From Bacteroidales bacterium (GTDB taxonomy: Bacteria; Bacteroidota; Bacteroidia; Bacteroidales; WRLA01): DNA of 64,000 nucleotides. A model generated the notes under the pieces. It had not been told where the DNA came from. It did no database searches and was given only the letters and a program-made list of their open reading frames with translations. Within the stretch, counting starts at the first letter, position 1; the number at the start of each line of letters is the position of its first letter. Positions 50,568 through 60,469 of this stretch are shown here, one piece after another. The stretch is taken from the NCBI GenBank assembly GCA_965230045.1, contig OZ245940.1, forward strand, positions 1,847,590 through 1,911,589, written 5' to 3'. Made by a program: the position numbers and the translations under genes.

Positions 50568-53141
50568 TTAATATTGGTTTTCAGGATACAGCTCATCCCA
50601 CCACTGGTTTTCACCTTTCAAATAACGGTCGAACCAGGCCAGAATGGTCTTTTGCCACAATATCCTCTTTTTGTAATCTACAATATGGTGGTCCTGTTTG
50701 TCGATTTCAATCAGTTCCACCGGGCGGTTGAGCAGTTTCAGCGCGGCATAAAGCTGTCGGCTTTCACCAGGTGGTACGTTTGTGTCGGAATTACCGTGCA
50801 GCAGCAGTAGGGGCGTGTGGATTTTATCCGCATGATAAAGAGGGCTCTGTTCCACGTACAATTCTTTGTTGTTCCAAGGGAAACTGTTGGCTGTAGCAGT
50901 AGAACTGTAAAGGTAGCCCCAATAGCCTTCGCCCCAGTAAGAAGCAATGGAACTGATCCCGGCATGCGCAATGGCTGCAGCAAATATATCGGTGCGCGTT
51001 TGTAATAGCATCGTCATAAAACCTCCGTAAGATGCTCCCATGCAGCCCACTTTTTCGGCATCAGCAAAGGGATGTGCTGCTAAAAATTCTTTCGCGCCTT
51101 TAATAATTTCATCCGCAACGGTAATGCCCCAATTATTCACATGCATGGCCGAAAATTCCTGTCCAAAACCGGTGGCGCCGCTGGGCTGAAGCACATATAC
51201 CAGATAATCCATGGCAGCGAAAAGGTTTTTGGGATAGCGCCCGCCAAAACTGCGGTTCACAGGGCTGGTTCCTCCATAATAATACACAATGACCGGATAT
51301 TTTTTTGCGGCATCGAAATTGGGCGGATAATAAACCCGGCCTTTGATTTCCACGCCTTTTTTGTTTTTGAAGTTCCAGTCTTCTGTTTTCCCGAATTTTA
51401 CAAACTGATATTCTTCTTCCCAGGGTGCTGAGATCCTTTGGAAATTATCGGTATCAAGCTGCCCCATAAATGCAGAAGGCGGTGTGCTGATGCTGTTGGC
51501 TATACAGGCCAGTTGCCCTTTGTTGGAAACGCTTATTCTTGTAACTACGTCGGCATCAATATTCTGACGTGTATATTCCTTGCTGTTGATGTCGTATGTG
51601 TAAACCCTGTCGTAGCTCTCTTCTTCAACAAGGAAAACAATACCGAATTCTTTCCAGTAAGCACGCTGGATGTTGGGTTTAAAATCCTTGCTGATGGCAG
51701 TAGCTTCTCCGCTGCCTAAATCATAGATGTAAGCCTGTGTGTCATAATCGTTTGGGATTTGCTTTTTGCTTACGTTTTTGCCCAAATCGCCAAACAGTAC
51801 CGGGCTGCCGGTAACAAGCAGTTTTGTACCATCCGGATTGTATTGCACGCTGCCGCTGTAGTTTTTTGTCCAGATTTCTTTCAGTTCGCCTGTGCTAAGT
51901 GTCATTTCGTACAGCTTTTGCACCGAGTAAGGCCGTTGAGTGAAATCCGGGCTGCTCGTACTGAAAAGGATTTTTGTGCCATCGGGAGAAATATCCTGTA
52001 GGCCGGCTGACAAATTGCCATGTGTCAGGCGTTGCTGCATACCGTTTTCGATAAACAAAATGTTGAGCTGATAACGGTTGCGCCACCAGGGCCAGTGGTC
52101 GGGCATGCCTTCGAGCTTTTTAAGGCCGCTCTTGTTTTCATCTGCTTTGTCCCGACTGGAAAAAATAACGAAATCGCCATTGGGAGACCAGTTATAGCCG
52201 TATATTTCATCGGAACCGGTCGCCAGTTTTTTATAGCTCTGCCATTCGGGATCAAATGCCATCAAATGATGCTCCTCACCTGATTTCTGAACAAAACTGA
52301 AAGTATTGCTTTTTGGGATCCAGTTTGTTGATGAAGGCGTATCGGTAATGAAGGCTTCCACCAATTCGTTCGTGGCGGTTTTGCGTATTTCAGACCATGA
52401 TTTGCTTTTGCCTTCCGGTGGGTACGTCTCGCTATAGCTTACGTAATAATAATCCCCTTTGGGCGAAATATTGATATTGCGTACGTTTTTGCCGTTCATC
52501 AGGTGCTCAATATCCATAAAGGATTCAGGATTCAGGCTGATTTCCAGTTGGGCATCTGATTCAGCTGAAGCACGCAGTTTGCCTTCTTTTCGGCCTTCGG
52601 GCAAAAGTACTTTTATCAGCAGCAGGTGCTTTCCCTGCATCAGTTTCAACTCTTTGCTTTTGCTTCCGGCATCTAACGTATCGGCTTCGCAACTGTTTTT
52701 GCTGAATATTTTTTTGCCATCCACATAAGCTTCCAGCATAAAATGGCTTTCTGCTTCAATGGTGGTTTTCGTAAATTCCGGACAATAAAAATAGCTTGCC
52801 AGATATTGGATATGCCATTTATCGCTGTCGTGGCCAAGTAAAATTCCGCTTGAATCCGCAGTAGAAAGTTTTTTCCAGGATAATCCACTGCTTTTGCCCA
52901 TTTGCATGCTTTTACTGATGAAGGGCCTGATGTCGCTGATTTCAATGAAATCATTGCTCAGGAGGTCTTTATCTTCAAAGGTTTTTTCCTTGATATTTTT
53001 TATTGTGTCAAAAGCAGGTTTGATGATCCGGAACTGTTCCGAAATCAGCCAGGAGTTAATGTTTTGTGCTTTGATGCTGCCAAATCCCGCAAATAATGCC
53101 AGAATAAGCAGCGAGATAAGGGTGGTGGAATATTTTTTCAT
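50568..53141 (-). CDS. S9 family peptidase
   Basis: Signal peptide, propeller repeats (SPDG, NPDG), GASYGG nucleophile, HGNSDTNV, QDHHI. Confidence 0.92.
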   Translation of the reverse strand: MKKYSTTLISLLILALFAGFGSIKAQNINSWLISEQFRIIKPAFDTIKNIKEKTFEDKDLLSNDFIEISDIRPFISKSMQMGKSSGLSWKKLSTADSSGILLGHDSDKWHIQYLASYFYCPEFTKTTIEAESHFMLEAYVDGKKIFSKNSCEADTLDAGSKSKELKLMQGKHLLLIKVLLPEGRKEGKLRASAESDAQLEISLNPESFMDIEHLMNGKNVRNINISPKGDYYYVSYSETYPPEGKSKSWSEIRKTATNELVEAFITDTPSSTNWIPKSNTFSFVQKSGEEHHLMAFDPEWQSYKKLATGSDEIYGYNWSPNGDFVIFSSRDKADENKSGLKKLEGMPDHWPWWRNRYQLNILFIENGMQQRLTHGNLSAGLQDISPDGTKILFSTSSPDFTQRPYSVQKLYEMTLSTGELKEIWTKNYSGSVQYNPDGTKLLVTGSPVLFGDLGKNVSKKQIPNDYDTQAYIYDLGSGEATAISKDFKPNIQRAYWKEFGIVFLVEEESYDRVYTYDINSKEYTRQNIDADVVTRISVSNKGQLACIANSISTPPSAFMGQLDTDNFQRISAPWEEEYQFVKFGKTEDWNFKNKKGVEIKGRVYYPPNFDAAKKYPVIVYYYGGTSPVNRSFGGRYPKNLFAAMDYLVYVLQPSGATGFGQEFSAMHVNNWGITVADEIIKGAKEFLAAHPFADAEKVGCMGASYGGFMTMLLQTRTDIFAAAIAHAGISSIASYWGEGYWGYLYSSTATANSFPWNNKELYVEQSPLYHADKIHTPLLLLHGNSDTNVPPGESRQLYAALKLLNRPVELIEIDKQDHHIVDYKKRILWQKTILAWFDRYLKGENQWWDELYPENQY

Positions 53142-53251: not shown

Positions 53252-54568
53252 TTACTCAAAAAGTTTGATTTTTTCATCAAGATGATCAATCGGGTCTTCG
53301 TTCATAATCTGGCGCAGGGTGTTTTTGAGTTTCACCTGCTGGATGAATAGATCGTGCTCGGGCACAACGTCTTCTGAGTGCATCGGGCTCTTAAAGTAGA
53401 AAGAAAGCCATTCCTGGATTCCTTCGAAACCAACGCGTTTTGAAAGGTCCATCAGCAGAACAAGGTCGAGTACAATCGGTGCTGCCAAAATGGAGTCGCG
53501 GCAGAGGAAATCGATTTTCATTTGCATGGGGTAGCCCATCCAGCCAAAGATGTCGATATTGTCCCAGCCTTCTTTATTGTCGCGGCGAGGTGGATAATAA
53601 TTGATACGTACCTTGTGGTAGTAGTCTTTGTAGAGTTCCGGATAAAGCTCGGGTTGCAGGATGCTGTCGATAACGCTCAGTTTGCTTTCTTCCTTGGTTT
53701 TGAAAGAACCCGGATCGTCGAGAACTTCACCGTCACGGTTTCCGAGGATGTTGGTAGAAAACCATCCGTTGAGGCCCAACATGCGCATTTTAATCATAGG
53801 CGCAATGATGGTTTTTACCATGGTTTGTCCGGTTTTGAAATCTTTTCCGGCAATGGGCATGTGGTTTTTCTCAGCCAGTTCCATGATGGCCGGCATGTCG
53901 ATGGTGAGGTTTGGTGCACCATTAATATAAGGAACACTTTCTGAGATTGCTGCGTAAGCATACATCATACTTGGGCTGATGTGCTCATCATTTGAACGCA
54001 GGCCTTCTTCGAAATTGGCCAGGCTGCTGTGTACTTCGGAGGCTTTCAGGAATACTTCGGTACTGCCGCACCAAACCACGATCATATCTTCGCAATTGTT
54101 ATCTGCTTTAAACTGCTTGATGTCATCACGAAGCATTTGTGTCAGCTCCCATTTGCTTGGTGCTTGTTTCACCCACTCGCCATCAAGGCGTTTTACGTAA
54201 TTCTTGTCAAAAACAGCCTTCATGGGGCGTAAAGCCGAAAGCTCATCTTTGATCTGGTCGAGATGTTCGTTGCTGAGAACCTGTGATACTTTGCAAGCTT
54301 CATAGAGGTCTTGATCCATGATGTCCCAGCCACCAAAAACAATATCATTTATGTCGTGCAGTGGCACAAAATCCTTGATTTTTGGAAAGTTTTCATCGGT
54401 ACGTTTGCCGATGCGAATTGTGTTCATTTGTGTCAGTGATCCAACCGGTACAGCATGTCCGTTGCGCACTGAGATGGTTCCTGCAACAAAGGTTGTAGAA
54501 ACGGCACCGTTGAGCCCTACTACGAGCACACCGAGTTTCCCTTTAGGTTTTTCAGGTATCTTTTCCAT
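53252..54568 (-). CDS. ino1: myo-Inositol-3-phosphate synthase (MIPS)
   Basis: VFGGWD, WCGSTE, NGAPN, GKDFKTGQT, NILGNRDG, RDSILAAP, LSFYFKSP. Confidence 0.96.
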   Translation of the reverse strand: MEKIPEKPKGKLGVLVVGLNGAVSTTFVAGTISVRNGHAVPVGSLTQMNTIRIGKRTDENFPKIKDFVPLHDINDIVFGGWDIMDQDLYEACKVSQVLSNEHLDQIKDELSALRPMKAVFDKNYVKRLDGEWVKQAPSKWELTQMLRDDIKQFKADNNCEDMIVVWCGSTEVFLKASEVHSSLANFEEGLRSNDEHISPSMMYAYAAISESVPYINGAPNLTIDMPAIMELAEKNHMPIAGKDFKTGQTMVKTIIAPMIKMRMLGLNGWFSTNILGNRDGEVLDDPGSFKTKEESKLSVIDSILQPELYPELYKDYYHKVRINYYPPRRDNKEGWDNIDIFGWMGYPMQMKIDFLCRDSILAAPIVLDLVLLMDLSKRVGFEGIQEWLSFYFKSPMHSEDVVPEHDLFIQQVKLKNTLRQIMNEDPIDHLDEKIKLFE

Positions 54569-57180: not shown

Positions 57181-58011
57181 TTAGTTTTTTTCCATGAATT
57201 TCCGGGCTTTTTCATCGATCAGTTTCGCGATATGCACGCAGGCTTCGTTTCTGATTGGTGCGTAGCTGGGCCAGTCGTTCAAGTCGATAATATGTATGCC
57301 TCCGTTTTTGTCGATAATGGCATCACCACCAAAAATGTCCACGTTAACTGCATTGGCTGCATCGGCTGCGATTTTTTTAAGTTGTTCGTCATCAAATTGG
57401 TGCTGGCCGTTTTTTTCAAGATAATACCAATGAAAAAATTCGCTGCCGCGTACACTATAAAATTTAACCACATCTCCATCTATATGTTCTTGTACCACAG
57501 CTTTTTCAATGCCACGACGATGGTATTCGCGCAGAATATTGTCGCGTTCGGCATGTGAATAAACAAGTGTAACATCTTCGCGGTGAATAGCATGCACATC
57601 GCCACGTTTTACCCAAATTTTTTCGCCCAGGCTGTCGGCTTCTTTTGCTTTAAATTTTCCGGGATCGGTTTCTACAACATAAGTTGTTGGCGCAGGGACA
57701 TGATGCTTGGGCAGTAAAACAGCCAGATTAATGCGGTAACAATTGTAGATGGCGTCCACGGAATTAATGATCAGGGCACCATTATTGGCATACTGACGCA
57801 GAGTTTCCAAAGCATTGTATCCGCGTATCATATTAAAAAACAAGGTATTACCGCTTTTGTCTTCGGCGAGGTTGTCTTCTTGGAAAACCCGGACTTTATG
57901 CCCCATCTTTTCCAGTTCCTCTATGGTTTTATATAAAATCAGTGTGTCGTTTTCGATATGGTTGGGCGAGTACTGATGGCCTCGTTGAATCGCGCTGAAA
58001 GAATAACCCAT
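57181..58011 (-). CDS. ATP-grasp fold protein (possibly ITPK1-like kinase)
   Basis: IINS, VPAPTT, IWVKRGD, VVQEHIDGDVVKFY, FGGDAII, IIDLNDWPSY. Confidence 0.75.
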   Translation of the reverse strand: MGYSFSAIQRGHQYSPNHIENDTLILYKTIEELEKMGHKVRVFQEDNLAEDKSGNTLFFNMIRGYNALETLRQYANNGALIINSVDAIYNCYRINLAVLLPKHHVPAPTTYVVETDPGKFKAKEADSLGEKIWVKRGDVHAIHREDVTLVYSHAERDNILREYHRRGIEKAVVQEHIDGDVVKFYSVRGSEFFHWYYLEKNGQHQFDDEQLKKIAADAANAVNVDIFGGDAIIDKNGGIHIIDLNDWPSYAPIRNEACVHIAKLIDEKARKFMEKN

Positions 58012-58035: not shown

Positions 58036-58674
58036 TTAGTCTGTCTGTAAGTCGCTGAAGCTTTCCGTTCTATGTTCTTCTATTATTTCCATGCCTTTTT
58101 CAGTGGAAATACCCCGGATGAAGTTTATCGTAACATTATCAAGTAGCTCCTGAATGCTGTGCCTTTTGTTGAAATAAAAATCTTCACGCAAAATGAAACT
58201 CAGTGTTTCTACAATTATTTTGGCCGTAATGGTTATATTGATGTTTTTGCGGAAAATCCCTTCATTAATGCCTTTCCGCAATAGTTTGTATATTTCATTA
58301 TAACGTGTTTCATTTATCCGGTTCATTTCTGATTCCCAGATGTTTGGATAATACTTTTGTGTGTCAAGATAGTAATTAGGGTTGATGTCCTGAAGGATGC
58401 GGGTTTGCATTTCTGCTACATTAAATATTGCCATGATAACATTGGCCGATTTTTGAATGATTTGCAGCGAGCCGGACTTTATTTCATTTTCGTGGCCAAC
58501 AACGCAATCCTGTATGAGCTCTACCTTATCGCGGTATTTTTCGTAAATCGTACGTTTCGAAACCCCTGCTTCTCGTGCAACTCTGTCCATCGTAACGGTT
58601 TTTATTCCGTATTTTCGGAAGAGCTCACCCGCTGTACGGGCTATTTTTTCTTTGACGTTCATTATTTTAGGCAT
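58036..58674 (-). CDS. TetR/AcrR family transcriptional regulator
   Basis: LFRKYGIKTVTMDRVAREAGVSKRTIYEKY HTH. Confidence 0.92.
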   Translation of the reverse strand: MPKIMNVKEKIARTAGELFRKYGIKTVTMDRVAREAGVSKRTIYEKYRDKVELIQDCVVGHENEIKSGSLQIIQKSANVIMAIFNVAEMQTRILQDINPNYYLDTQKYYPNIWESEMNRINETRYNEIYKLLRKGINEGIFRKNINITITAKIIVETLSFILREDFYFNKRHSIQELLDNVTINFIRGISTEKGMEIIEEHRTESFSDLQTD

Positions 58675-58684
58675 TAATGAGCGG

Positions 58685-58719
58685 CAAAGATAAAAACTTT
58701 TTCGGTTTTCAAAGTTTTT
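58685..58719 (-). promoter_or_regulatory. -7 promoter (TATCTTTG) with adjacent inverted repeat, candidate TetR operator
   Basis: CAAAGATA at 58685-58692; AAAAACTTT-N10-AAAGTTTTT at 58692-58719. Confidence 0.5.
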
Positions 58720-59417
58720 TATTCGTCTTTAAGGAAGGACTTTGCTTTTTCTATATCGCTAATGTGGTCAACATCAATAATTTTATCAATAAAGTGTGCT
58801 TTGATTTTTAGTTCCTGCTCAACCAAAAACTGCTGGAAATTCCGCATACGGCTGATGCTTCTTTGCATTGCGGTTTCTGCCAACCTAAATACTTCAGGAT
58901 AAAAGCAATAGATGCCTCCACTGATGCAATTATAATCCGCTTGTGTACCTTGAAAACTCCGAATCATCTGCTGCTTATCAGTTTTTATGAAAAGTGGTTT
59001 TTCATCATCAACATATCCGGTAACAGCCATGCAGGCATCAAGTCCCGGCTGATGAGCAGCCTTGATATAGTTTTTATAGTCATTTTCCGGTATGATGGGG
59101 TCGACGGTACTGATAAGTATTGGCTGGTTTTGCTCGCAAGCTTTACTCAACTCATAAAAACTATGAAAAGAACTGGGCGTACTTTTGATGATAAAATGGA
59201 AATCTTTATCGGGAAAAGTTTTCAGTACATAATCGCGTACTTCTGTTGATTGCTCGTTGATAATGATATAAATTTTATCCATACCGGCTTCGATGCCCAG
59301 GCGTAATTGCCTGCTGATCAGACTTTCTTCATTAATTTTAACTAGTGGTTTGGGTAGGCTGATCCCTTCCTGGCGTAATCTGCTGCCTTCTCCTGCTGCG
59401 ATGATTCCAAGGTTCAT
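58719..59417 (-). CDS. NTP transferase (IPCT-like nucleotidyltransferase)
   Basis: GIIAAGEGSRL...PKPLVKI, STVD, VDDEKPL, DVDH..DI. Confidence 0.85.
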   Translation of the reverse strand: MNLGIIAAGEGSRLRQEGISLPKPLVKINEESLISRQLRLGIEAGMDKIYIIINEQSTEVRDYVLKTFPDKDFHFIIKSTPSSFHSFYELSKACEQNQPILISTVDPIIPENDYKNYIKAAHQPGLDACMAVTGYVDDEKPLFIKTDKQQMIRSFQGTQADYNCISGGIYCFYPEVFRLAETAMQRSISRMRNFQQFLVEQELKIKAHFIDKIIDVDHISDIEKAKSFLKDE

Positions 59418-59440
59418 TTTTTTTATTTTAATGCTTCGAC

Positions 59441-59458
59441 TTAATTTTGCAAAATTAA
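59441..59458. promoter_or_regulatory. Perfect 18-bp palindrome carrying a TAATTTTG -7 element on both strands
   Basis: TTAATTTTGCAAAATTAA, 24 bp upstream of the NTP transferase start. Confidence 0.55.
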
Positions 59459-59460
59459 AC

Positions 59461-59496
59461 AAAAAGTCCCTGCTCATTTTTTTGAACAGGGACTTT
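59461..59496 (-). terminator. Terminator after DUF4412-like gene
   Basis: AAAGTCCCTG / CAGGGACTTT stem. Confidence 0.7.
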
Positions 59497-59518: not shown

Positions 59519-60304
59519 TTATTCCATTTGCATCATCATTTGCGACATTTCTTCGGTCGTCATTTTTTTGTAGCCTGAAGGTACGTTCATGATTTCAGAG
59601 GAAATATTGGTTTTTTCAGCAGATTTAACTGTGCTCATTGTGGTTTCCATCCCGCCTGTATATTCAATAGTTTTCATTGGATATCCTTTTTGGATGATTT
59701 TCATCACATCATCCGACAGGTCATAATTGTCCTCAGCATTATCAGAACCTCCTGCTATACTTTTTAGCTGGTTAGCCAATTTTTGAAATTTGTGTACATC
59801 AATTTCGGAAGTAATTTGTACATCCTTTGCCAGGGCTTGTTTTTCTTTAAGCTGCCCATTAACGTAAATCTCATACCAGGTAGTTTTGTAACCGGCGATT
59901 TCGGGGCCTGCACCGGCCTCTTTTACATCAACATCCGGCAGCTTGATATCTCCTTTTTGGCTTTTTTCCATGGCTGTGATGGAAGCCTGGATCATTGGTT
60001 TATATTCTTCCGGCATTTGCGCCATAGCTGCTTTCATGCCATCAATCGCTGCCTGGATCATTTCTTTAGGTGTGCCTTCCCAATAAGCTTGCTGTGCGTC
60101 AAAACACATTTTGAGCGTACCTTTGGAAACATCAAATATCATTTTTTGGCCTCCATCCTGAAATTCAACAATTTTATTGTCCTGAAAATAGATTTTGGAA
60201 TTAGCGCCGTCATCTTCCTCAGTGATGACCCATCCGGCGAAAGAGGGCATTGCTACGGCCATAATGATTACGACCATAAGGATTTGTTTCAATTTTAAAA
60301 TCAT
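59519..60304 (-). CDS. Secreted DUF4412-like protein
   Basis: Signal peptide ending SFA|G; IAGYKTTWY, GYPMK, VPSGYKKM. Confidence 0.65.
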   Translation of the reverse strand: MILKLKQILMVVIIMAVAMPSFAGWVITEEDDGANSKIYFQDNKIVEFQDGGQKMIFDVSKGTLKMCFDAQQAYWEGTPKEMIQAAIDGMKAAMAQMPEEYKPMIQASITAMEKSQKGDIKLPDVDVKEAGAGPEIAGYKTTWYEIYVNGQLKEKQALAKDVQITSEIDVHKFQKLANQLKSIAGGSDNAEDNYDLSDDVMKIIQKGYPMKTIEYTGGMETTMSTVKSAEKTNISSEIMNVPSGYKKMTTEEMSQMMMQME

Positions 60305-60469
60305 AAGTTGTTGTTTTTGATTGCTAAAAATTATGTTAGTTCGGGCAAATATAAAAGATTTTTGTACAGAAAGTGAGTGATAATTAAAGGATAGATGGAT
60401 TTTTTGACTTGTTTTTTGTTTTGATCGAAAAAAAGAATGCCAATGTTTAGGATGCAATGAAAAAAACTA

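Follow-up and report, generated by a model that had tools for sequence, protein, structure and literature searches.

Genetic context of the ATP-grasp gene

The gene examined here encodes an orphan ATP-grasp enzyme and lies at positions 57181..58011 of a 64,000-nucleotide stretch of DNA from a Bacteroidales bacterium (lineage WRLA01; assembly GCA_965230045.1, contig OZ245940.1, positions 1,847,590 to 1,911,589 of the forward strand), the whole of which is referred to below as the window. The open reading frame (ORF) listing of the window gave a frame at exactly this position on the reverse strand, with an ATG start and a product of 276 amino acids. Database searches returned 562 proteins matching this product at E ≤ 1e-3, the top match at 1e-171, and the ORF is therefore counted as a real gene. 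The translation contains QEHIDGDVVKFY at residues 174–185, FGGDAII at residues 227–233 and IIDLNDWPSY at residues 241–250.

The ATP-grasp gene is one of a compact group of genes that share the reverse strand (Table 1). Its stop region and the first part of the CDP-alcohol transferase gene share 35 nt, the latter gene overlaps the gene of the LPG_synthase_TM and HAD fusion by 1 nt, and 17 nt separate the fusion gene from that of MIPS. Upstream on the same strand lie the TetR gene and then the NTP-transferase gene, whose top NCBIfam match was the IPCT half of IPCT/DIPPS (3.5e-14, under the cut-off). The CDP-alcohol transferase matched the NCBIfam models for archaetidylinositol-phosphate synthase (1.3e-12) and IPCT/DIPPS (2.5e-11), both under cut-off, and is predicted to move a phospho-inositol head group onto a lipid alcohol. 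Within the fusion protein the Pfam LPG_synthase_TM domain covers residues 12–314 (6.3e-33) and the HAD domain residues 333–534 (4e-23), the latter being the predicted remover of an extra head-group phosphate.

Table 1. Genes of the ATP-grasp cluster in the window, and PfkB-family kinase genes of two related genomes
Feature	Position	Strand	Basis
NTP-transferase family gene, IPCT-like, 252 aa; predicted cytidylyltransferase for a CDP-activated inositol head group	58719..59477	-	Pfam NTP_transferase 1.7e-12
TetR-family regulator, between the NTP-transferase and ATP-grasp genes	58036..58674	-	Pfam TetR_N 5.1e-11
Orphan ATP-grasp enzyme, 276 aa; predicted inositol-monophosphate kinase	57181..58011	-	Sub-threshold family matches; AlphaFold2 model; fold; conserved residues
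CDP-alcohol phosphotransferase, BEPIS/AIP-synthase-like, 312 aa	56277..57215	-	Pfam CDP-OH_P_transf 6.5e-11
LPG_synthase_TM (HpnL-type, flippase-like) + HAD phosphatase fusion, 563 aa	54586..56277	-	Pfam
MIPS, myo-inositol-1-phosphate synthase, 438 aa; source of Ins3P	53252..54568	-	Pfam NAD_binding_5 1.4e-106, Inos-1-P_synth 3.2e-32
PfkB-family kinase, Dyadobacter alkalitolerans	L039:11652-12572
PfkB orthologue, Tannerella forsythia ATCC 43037, 56% identical	G161:C139:49332-50192

Family assignment and fold of the ATP-grasp protein

The ATP-grasp protein fits no curated family, and its matches to RimK and ITPK hidden Markov models (HMMs) were all sub-threshold. The Pfam scan gave RimK alone, at 20.1 bits against a cut-off of 21 and over residues 177–264, and relaxing the threshold to E ≤ 10 added ATPgrasp_ST. 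The NCBIfam models MptN, rimK_fam, LysX and CofF scored 20–39 bits against cut-offs of 143–350 (MptN 39.1/350, rimK_fam 35.8/143.4, LysX 33/275.6), the three strongest matches being restricted to residues 208–274. When 44 family members were scanned singly, RimK reached 11 of them, ATPgrasp_ST 11, ATP-grasp_3 seven and Ins134_P3_kin (PF05770) three, again all below threshold, with a best E of 0.01 for PF05770. A search of the window's genome with TIGR00768 at E ≤ 1e-5 listed four other places, and the ATP-grasp gene was not among them. The protein thus fails family-HMM membership of both ITPK (PF05770) and RimK (TIGR00768, PF08443). The ESM Atlas returned only its own unnamed family, one cluster of which carried RimK on 14% of its members. 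At 50% clustering this family comprises 471 representatives at E ≤ 1e-30, a number that rises to 941 at E ≤ 1e-10 and to 1313 at E ≤ 1e-3.

The sequence was also compared with chains of the PDB. Used singly it matched ITPK1 chains at E 0.1, while a profile of the 44 sequences matched AtITPK4 at 8.6e-4, Entamoeba ITPK1 at 5e-3, PsnB at 0.01 and human ITPK1 at 0.013–0.017; no RimK, LysX or Ddl chain appeared in this profile search.

The AlphaFold2 model of the protein had a mean predicted local distance difference test score of 91.2 and a predicted template modelling score of 0.89. Foldseek placed ArgX/LysX, Ddl, PsnB and RimK first, at E 5e-15 to 2e-12 (3vpb 4.8e-15, RimK 4iwx 4.7e-13), with DcsG also among the best fold matches and no ITPK chain among the best 49 matches listed. 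The VIA structural search, which is independent of Foldseek and covered 48,161 chains, gave Z scores of 22.3 for CPS, 22.2 and 22.0 for LysX/ArgX (5k2m and 3vpb), 21.8 for RimK (4iwx), approximately 20.8 for Ddl and 20.2 for synapsin. The same search gave 19.0 for human ITPK1 (2qb5, root-mean-square deviation 3.5 over 253 aligned residues), 18.9 for potato ITPK1 (8oxe), 18.4 for PPIP5K2, 18.3 for AtITPK4 (7pup) and 18.2 for Entamoeba ITPK1 (1z2n). The model therefore superposes on the solved ITPK structures (Z 18.2–19.0), but the ligases score higher (Z 20.7–22.2).

The catalytic site was compared with that of RimK using L245, a RimK-family protein from a genome of the same genus that scores 165.6 bits to TIGR00768. 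The hhalign alignment of L245 with the family profile was weak (probability 3%, E 0.015) and its columns rest on conserved anchors. In this weak alignment K183 is paired with the Arg of D-I-R and D243 with the Glu of E-x-N, and 12 residues are missing from the window's subfamily where L245 reads ...ELRSN. As aligned, the ATP-grasp protein does not show the RimK catalytic motifs read from L245 (D-x-R, R-x-N...G-G and E-x-N-x-x-P-G). The T. forsythia and fused forms have an insertion at the ...ELRSN site, without a conserved Arg. HMMER aligned the C-terminal motif to human ITPK1, AtITPK4 and Entamoeba ITPK1 (2odt/2q7d, 7pup and 1z2n), all of which have D-x-N. The G-x-D and D-x-N-x-[FW]-P-[SG]-[YF] motifs align with those of the ITPKs, and K-F-Y aligns to AtITPK4 (7pup) in a weak stretch.

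Conservation was measured over 218 non-identical sequences, 29–95% identical to the window protein. The ATP-grasp core residues K135, K183, D230, D243 and N245 were invariant or nearly so, and R10, S15, P16, N17, D22, N83, R93, R136, D146, R166, D246, R254 and K/R144 were also conserved. Besides the two ATP lysines, six basic residues are conserved.

A preliminary description of this DNA, made from the sequence, had named the three motifs given above, all of which are present, and the co-oriented, tight packing with the CDP-alcohol transferase, HAD fusion and MIPS genes, which the overlaps and the 17-nt gap bear out. It made no reference to the upstream TetR and NTP-transferase genes. It had placed K-F-Y and D-x-N at the D-x-R and E-x-N positions of RimK, as is also found in the L245 alignment at its low probability. 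Its phrase "ITPK1-like rather than RimK-like" stands as far as motif resemblance to the ITPKs goes and falls as a statement of kinship, PF05770 being silent and the RimK models scoring higher. The structural comparison of ITPK1 with RimK, LysX and Ddl that it had proposed came out on the side of the carboxylate-amine ligases, with Z 20.7–22.2 against 19.0 for ITPK1, which is one part of the outcome that it had listed as counting against its reading. The protein is best described as a distinct ATP-grasp family, nearer in shape to the small LysX/RimK ligases and with some catalytic-site motifs of ITPK type.

Conserved neighbours and fusions

Relatives of the gene were located by a pattern scan of one genome per species, which found them in at least 592 species, 80 loci being retained. 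Among these 80, the region within 8 kb of the ATP-grasp gene contained the CDP-alcohol transferase in 77 cases, LPG_TM/HAD in 71, the NTP-transferase in 69 and MIPS in 47. Two further scans and the removal of duplicates gave 160 non-redundant loci flanked on each side by 4 kb or more, of which 158 contained the CDP-alcohol transferase, 156 HAD, 152 the NTP-transferase, 82 MIPS and 68 the flippase-like domain. PfkB kinases, aminotransferases (class-III, AT3) and Gfo/Idh/MocA oxidoreductases were each found in 16 of the 160.

The NTP-transferase and ATP-grasp genes are adjacent, less than 300 bp apart, in 103 of 155 loci and form one open frame in 12 of the 155, including Prevotella jejuni, with the NTP-transferase at the N-terminus and the ATP-grasp domain at the C-terminus. 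In one such fusion, examined with Pfam and BLASTP, residues 1–230 are 42% identical to the window's NTP-transferase and residues 237–507 are 36% identical to its ATP-grasp protein. Since no Pfam model recognises the ATP-grasp part, the fused protein resembles a long "NTP transferase". The NTP-transferase Pfam domain was likewise present in all three "longer" homologues from a set of 5.8 billion proteins. When 12 of the 150 best library representatives were scanned, nine proved to be fusions: seven of NTP-transferase with ATP-grasp, one of HAD, NTP-transferase and ATP-grasp, and one of NTP-transferase, ATP-grasp and CDP-alcohol transferase. The HAD domain is fused to the CDP-alcohol transferase in three loci and to the flippase-like domain in four. 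PF09419 (mitochondrial PGP phosphatase) matched 33 of 58 cluster HADs, one of which attained the curated cut-off, and these sequence matches lend mild support to a predicted role of HAD as a lipid head-group phosphatase.

Co-occurrence at the level of whole genomes was determined in 151 genomes drawn evenly from the window's order, nearly every one from a different family. The ATP-grasp gene was present in 21 of these; both it and the NTP-transferase occurred in 21 genomes, the NTP-transferase alone in one, the ATP-grasp gene alone in none and neither in 129 (Fisher p 8e-25, uncorrected for relatedness). An orthologue of the CDP-alcohol transferase (at least 43% identical) was found in all 21 ATP-grasp-positive genomes. 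MIPS was present in 22 of the 151 genomes, 20 of them ATP-grasp-positive, so that 20 of the 21 ATP-grasp genomes have MIPS, and the two MIPS-positive genomes without ATP-grasp (G008 and G135) likewise have no NTP-transferase. In all five genomes in which the NTP-transferase orthologue stands apart, ATP-grasp is encoded elsewhere, three of the matches carrying in-frame stops; in one Prevotella genome an operon of ATP-grasp, HAD and MIPS is separate from the NTP-transferase, transferase and DUF5686 genes. The best explanation of these patterns is that the ATP-grasp enzyme is an obligatory part of a four-enzyme head-group module, together with the cytidylyltransferase, the CDP-alcohol transferase and the HAD phosphatase.

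The genome with an NTP-transferase orthologue alone (G078) has it fused to a CDP-alcohol transferase, and neither ATP-grasp nor MIPS was found in this genome. The fusion is a 436-aa frame with IPCT/DIPPS-like architecture (L254:605-1876), followed by a flippase-like gene and by HAD fragments only, and the locus may be a decaying or a different system.

Several other features accompany the cluster in part of the loci. An expanded cassette was seen at L013:4754-15188 and in 22 other loci (Ignavibacteria, Melioribacter and others), in the order NTP-transferase, MlaE/F/D, ATP-grasp, class-III aminotransferase, CDP-alcohol transferase, Gfo/Idh/MocA, flippase-like, HAD and MIPS, which suggests that the inositol head group is aminated here and that a lipid-transport system is linked to the pathway. 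A paralogous CDP-alcohol transferase (37–38% identical) occurs without ATP-grasp or HAD at L087:7307-9188, L086:8674-9561 and L156:6723-7667, adjoining a flippase-like gene (L087) or NTP-transferase and DUF5686 genes (L156), and as a second copy beside the full cluster in three genomes (G154, G006 and G114). A large CarboxypepD_reg and DUF5686 protein, BT_1527-like and already remarked on by Heaver et al. (2022), recurs beside the cluster or beside stand-alone NTP-transferase genes (L039:4604-7174, L170:2802-5366, L156:7358-10066 and L127:6437-9397). Just downstream of the Dyadobacter cluster, L039:13319-14793 encodes an S-adenosylmethionine methyltransferase and a PEMT-family phospholipid methyltransferase, which hints at further lipid head-group chemistry.

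The TetR gene lies near ATP-grasp in nine of the 80 related loci and in eight of the 160 non-redundant loci. Its insertion is limited to the window's close relatives and a few Bacteroidales metagenome-assembled genomes (MAGs), suggesting lineage-specific operon regulation. On one side of the operon the window has a 312-aa ORF that matched nothing in Pfam and for which a membrane or signal segment is predicted (59519-60457, reverse strand), and on the other an 857-aa S9 prolyl-oligopeptidase-family gene (50568-53141, reverse strand), both kept in the closest relatives only (3–4 of the 80 loci).

Source of the inositol phosphate

The MIPS gene is not a constant member of the cluster. A PF07994 search found no match in 11 cluster-bearing genomes, the control genomes behaving as expected; these were Dyadobacter alkalitolerans, D. 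luticola, Runella defluvii, a Larkinella, Parabacteroides faecalis, P. distasonis NM39_I3, T. forsythia ATCC 43037, a Tannerella MAG, and G114, G157 and G158. In the Dyadobacter cluster a PfkB kinase gene follows directly after HAD; in Cytophagales this gene takes the position held elsewhere by MIPS. The solved structures most closely related to this PfkB family are those of TM0415 (E 5e-28) and a Thermococcus kodakarensis kinase (E 3.7e-8); both enzymes have been described as myo-inositol kinases, yielding inositol 1-phosphate (Ins1P) and inositol 3-phosphate (Ins3P) respectively (Nagata et al., 2018, PMC5931981). The DUF4833 gene that comes after the PfkB gene was seen in 23 of the 160 loci.

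A PfkB orthologue, 56–60% identical or located in the cluster, was present in nine of the 11 MIPS-less genomes, T. forsythia among them, compared with four of 23 MIPS-positive, ATP-grasp-positive genomes in a genome-wide search (Fisher p 5e-4, relatedness uncorrected). The match was exact in one set of five genomes, PfkB occurring in both of those that have no MIPS and in none of the three that have it. On the simplest reading PfkB takes the place of MIPS in supplying inositol phosphate, in which case the pathway is entered at inositol phosphate and the ATP-grasp enzyme acts after that point. The ATP-grasp gene is kept with MIPS and with PfkB alike, and the enzyme would thus be needed whatever the source of the inositol phosphate.

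The operon of Tannerella forsythia

In T. forsythia ATCC 43037 an overlapping operon encodes an Asp-Al_Ex/TrkA_C permease, NTP-transferase, ATP-grasp, transferase, HAD and DUF6769. The ATP-grasp protein is 40% identical to that of the window, and the NTP-transferase orthologue immediately upstream of it is 46% identical to the window's (E 3e-58). Inositol-lipid production has been shown in print for this strain, which bears the same operon as the window. Megson et al. (2015, PMC4587543) called its transferase a BEPIS homologue and reported that T. forsythia has no IPCT, whereas an NTP-transferase orthologue is identified here in the operon. They found the inositol-phospho-dihydroceramides to be built from exogenous inositol only and stated that there were "no candidates for an inositol kinase"; a candidate for this missing kinase is now offered by PfkB rather than by the ATP-grasp enzyme. 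The inositol lipids described in that paper are plain inositol-phospho-dihydroceramides, with label in no other lipid. The ATP-grasp enzyme therefore leaves no trace in the product, which fits a kinase paired with a phosphatase.

The permease gene heads the operon (L170:5521-7191) and overlaps the NTP-transferase start by 16 nt. This permease is a candidate inositol importer of the inositol-dependent T. forsythia, and it was found beside ATP-grasp in one of the 160 loci only.

Proposed route and its alternatives

Taken together, the best explanation is that the four-enzyme module makes inositol phospholipids or sphingolipids by a CDP-inositol (Kennedy-type) route. Inositol monophosphate (InsP) would be supplied by MIPS, as in the window, or by a PfkB-type myo-inositol kinase in genomes without MIPS. 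The ATP-grasp enzyme would use ATP to convert InsP to inositol bisphosphate (InsP2). The kinase rather than ligase chemistry, the substrate, the position that receives the phosphate and the order of HAD action and transfer to lipid are inferred; the gene, its fold, its conserved partners, the fusions and the alternation of MIPS with PfkB were observed. The adjacent, at times fused, cytidylyltransferase would then activate one phosphate with CTP to give CDP-inositol-phosphate, from which the CDP-alcohol transferase would move phospho-inositol-phosphate onto diacylglycerol or ceramide, giving lipid-P-Ins-P. The HAD phosphatase would strip the extra phosphate to leave lipid-P-Ins, with a plain inositol-phosphate head group, and the flippase-like domain may next carry the lipid across the membrane. 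In a variant of this route HAD would trim the soluble bisphosphate, amounting to a positional isomerisation of InsP ahead of cytidylylation.

The kinase assignment follows from the position of a soluble ATP user between cytidylyltransferase and transferase, as judged by gene order and fusion, from its pairing with a phosphatase and from its leaving no mark on the lipid. Ins3P, the MIPS-derived phosphate, is a reported substrate of ITPK1 (review, PMC8024741), and kinase chemistry on it thus has a precedent in the ATP-grasp fold. That the enzyme is a kinase acting on an inositol-derived substrate of some kind is probable; that this substrate is inositol monophosphate, the extra phosphate being taken off later by HAD, we propose tentatively and at slightly less than an even chance.

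Several observations weigh against this assignment. None of the kinase family models matches, PF05770 staying silent for the protein up to E ≤ 10, and the RimK-type HMMs outscore ITPK (MptN 39.1 and rimK_fam 35.8 bits, compared with at most 21.6 bits for an ITPK chain). The ITPK matches in the PDB profile search are marginal, because beta-lactamases, which are noise, come next at E 0.03, and the nearest folds are those of carboxylate-amine ligases (Z approximately 22 compared with 19 for ITPK1). Conservation across the wider family does not extend to His140 and His143 of the "KRGDVHAIHRED" loop. The fusion of HAD, NTP-transferase and ATP-grasp and the Prevotella operon of ATP-grasp, HAD and MIPS hint at a phosphatase acting on a soluble intermediate, not on the lipid. 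On the supply side, PfkB and MIPS occur together in five further loci, so that their alternation is a tendency and no rule; no PfkB orthologue was found in two of the 11 MIPS-less genomes, one of them a MAG and the second an assembly of 390 contigs with 94% completeness; and TM0415, the closest solved relative of PfkB, makes Ins1P and not Ins3P (PMC5931981).

The alternative that survives best, although unlikely, is a ligase like RimK, LysX or Ddl, of carboxylate-amine or carboxylate-hydroxyl type. Via an acyl-phosphate it would attach an amino or other acid to the head group, whether inositol or aminated inositol, or to the CDP-activated precursor of that head group. The top folds (ArgX/LysX, RimK, DcsG and Ddl) and the top, sub-threshold HMMs (MptN, rimK_fam, LysX and Pfam RimK) are those of such ligases, and the cluster contains a flippase-like domain of the MprF family. 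In the 23 of 80 loci of Ignavibacteria type a class-III aminotransferase stands directly after ATP-grasp and Gfo/Idh/MocA after the transferase, which could provide an amine nucleophile. The aminotransferase is however absent from the window and most loci (AT3 in 16 of 160), and T. forsythia has the gene yet its reported inositol-phospho-dihydroceramides are undecorated, with no other labelled lipid. The family also has Lys for the Arg of D-x-R and D-x-N for E-x-N, and the window's subfamily has no counterpart of R-S-N...G-G, again as read from the weak L245 alignment (3%). The fusions seen join ATP-grasp to the nucleotidyltransferase, with HAD or the transferase added in one case each, and none adds an amino-acid-supplying enzyme.

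It is less probable still that the ATP-grasp protein is a myo-inositol kinase acting on free inositol, either imported or released from Ins3P by HAD, as the first step of a classical Kennedy pathway that would supply the isomer needed by the cytidylyltransferase. Kinases are commonly fused to nucleotidyltransferases, and one fusion seen here combines HAD, NTP-transferase and ATP-grasp. This reading was favoured at first, when five of five cluster genomes were found without MIPS, and the cluster is now known from 11 such genomes, including that of T. forsythia, which according to its authors uses exogenous inositol only and has no kinase candidate (PMC4587543). It was dropped as the best reading on finding the TM0415-like PfkB, related to two structurally characterised myo-inositol kinases, in nine of the 11. 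Entry at free inositol via ATP-grasp would leave the PfkB enrichment unexplained, and both ATP-grasp and HAD are retained in the PfkB-bearing genomes. Free inositol is moreover no substrate for the four inositol-phosphate kinase families reviewed in PMC8024741, the ATP-grasp ones included.

Similarly improbable is a kinase that works elsewhere in the pathway, either on a cyclitol phosphate in oxidised or aminated form, on CDP-inositol or on lipid-linked inositol, or by adding a PPIP5K-like second phosphate to an existing one. In its favour, the structural matches include PPIP5K2 (Z 18.4), some cassettes contain an oxidoreductase and an aminotransferase, and the near-universal HAD suits any transient phosphorylation. 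Against it, the oxidoreductase and the aminotransferase are absent from the window and most loci, nothing specific supports diphosphate formation, and a soluble protein fused to a soluble cytidylyltransferase argues against a lipid substrate.

With respect to the claims of the preliminary description, phosphorylation of an inositol phosphate remains the reading that best fits the comparative genomics and is probably right, while the proposed kinship with ITPK1 is unsupported. The linkage to MIPS that it had put forward is strong (47 of 80 loci within 8 kb, 20 of 21 genomes) and is not obligatory, given the 11 cluster genomes without MIPS. Its suggestion of bacterial inositol polyphosphates found no support, as nothing indicates stable ones, and the near-universal partner phosphatase suggests that the extra phosphate is transient.

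Comparison with described systems

Heaver et al. (2022, PMC9246714) proposed an "alternative" inositol-lipid cluster of Bacteroides vulgatus type, which in their account is unconfirmed and was never reconstituted; its use is proposed for many genera and for most Prevotella. According to the same authors, inositol lipids are made by B. vulgatus and P. veroralis. In the cluster they describe, MIPS is surrounded by the same genes, encoding a protein with an NTP-transferase domain, a CDP-alcohol phosphatidyltransferase and a HAD hydrolase; a lysyl-PG-synthase-like membrane protein is likewise encoded nearby, as is a CarboxypepD_reg/DUF5686 protein. The proposed logic is also shared, from inositol phosphate and CTP via CDP-inositol to the lipid. 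HAD was proposed there as the synthase converting phosphatidylinositol to phosphoinositol dihydroceramide (PI-DHC), whereas here it is a predicted phosphatase. Compared with that three-gene model, the ATP-grasp enzyme is equally conserved in the 160 loci and lies at times within the "NTP transferase" polypeptide. The term "ATP-grasp" occurs nowhere in the full text of that paper, the supplements lying outside this count.

In the CDP-inositol pathway of Rhodothermus marinus (MIPS, IPCT and BEPIS; Jorge et al., 2015, as cited in PMC4587543) a three-gene operon uses MIPS-derived inositol phosphate directly. It shares with the clusters examined here a CDP-inositol-derived phospholipid made by a CDP-alcohol transferase encoded beside MIPS and a cytidylyltransferase; the clusters here nearly always add ATP-grasp and a HAD phosphatase. 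The B. thetaiotaomicron BT_1523/BT_1525 route (Heaver et al., 2022) shares the proposed logic of a phosphorylated inositol lipid that is then trimmed by a phosphatase. It differs in being described as a CDP-diacylglycerol-dependent phosphatidylinositol phosphate (PIP) synthase with a PgpA-type phosphatase, with no cytidylyltransferase and no ATP-grasp, and the window's CDP-alcohol transferase matched a BT1523 model at E 3.8e-5 only.

The ATP-grasp protein shares with the ITPK1 family the ATP-grasp fold and the G-x-D and D-x-N motifs. Its 276 residues make it approximately 35–70 residues shorter than ITPK1 chains (302–347 aa; AtITPK4 479–490), and it differs further in having no PF05770 match, marginal PDB matches (E 9e-4 to 0.1) and a fold closer to LysX/RimK. 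With RimK, LysX, ArgX and MptN it shares a similar size, the best structural matches and the best sub-threshold HMM scores. The context of the RimK-type ligases is peptide or cofactor glutamylation, unlike that of the ATP-grasp gene here, which is lipid head-group synthesis. In the reviews consulted, ATP-grasp inositol-phosphate kinases are described only from eukaryotes and Lokiarchaeota. No account of this ATP-grasp enzyme turned up in the literature searched, which did not extend to Jorge 2015, Iyer 2009 or the supplements of Heaver et al.

Implications

The published three-gene model omits a fourth, equally conserved enzyme, which is sometimes hidden inside an "NTP transferase" protein because no Pfam model recognises the ATP-grasp part. 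Including it gives a testable order of reaction, from the inositol-phosphate source through ATP-grasp, cytidylyltransferase and transferase to the phosphatase. If the ATP-grasp enzyme is a kinase, it would as far as known be the first bacterial ATP-grasp inositol-phosphate kinase. In its fullest form the proposal is of a soluble bacterial enzyme, convergent with or very distant from the eukaryotic and archaeal ITPKs, that makes an inositol bisphosphate and so feeds CDP-inositol-phosphate, an intermediate not described before, and a transient PIP-like lipid (a glycerolipid or sphingolipid) trimmed by HAD in more than 590 species; this is a possibility that we regard as falling somewhat further short of an even chance than the assignment of inositol monophosphate as substrate. 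The inositol lipids of gut and oral Bacteroidota influence host interaction and fitness. If the proposal is true, a "phospho-Kennedy" route would span major genera of the human gut and mouth, namely Phocaeicola, Prevotella, Parabacteroides and Tannerella, with an aminated version in Ignavibacteria and other phyla.

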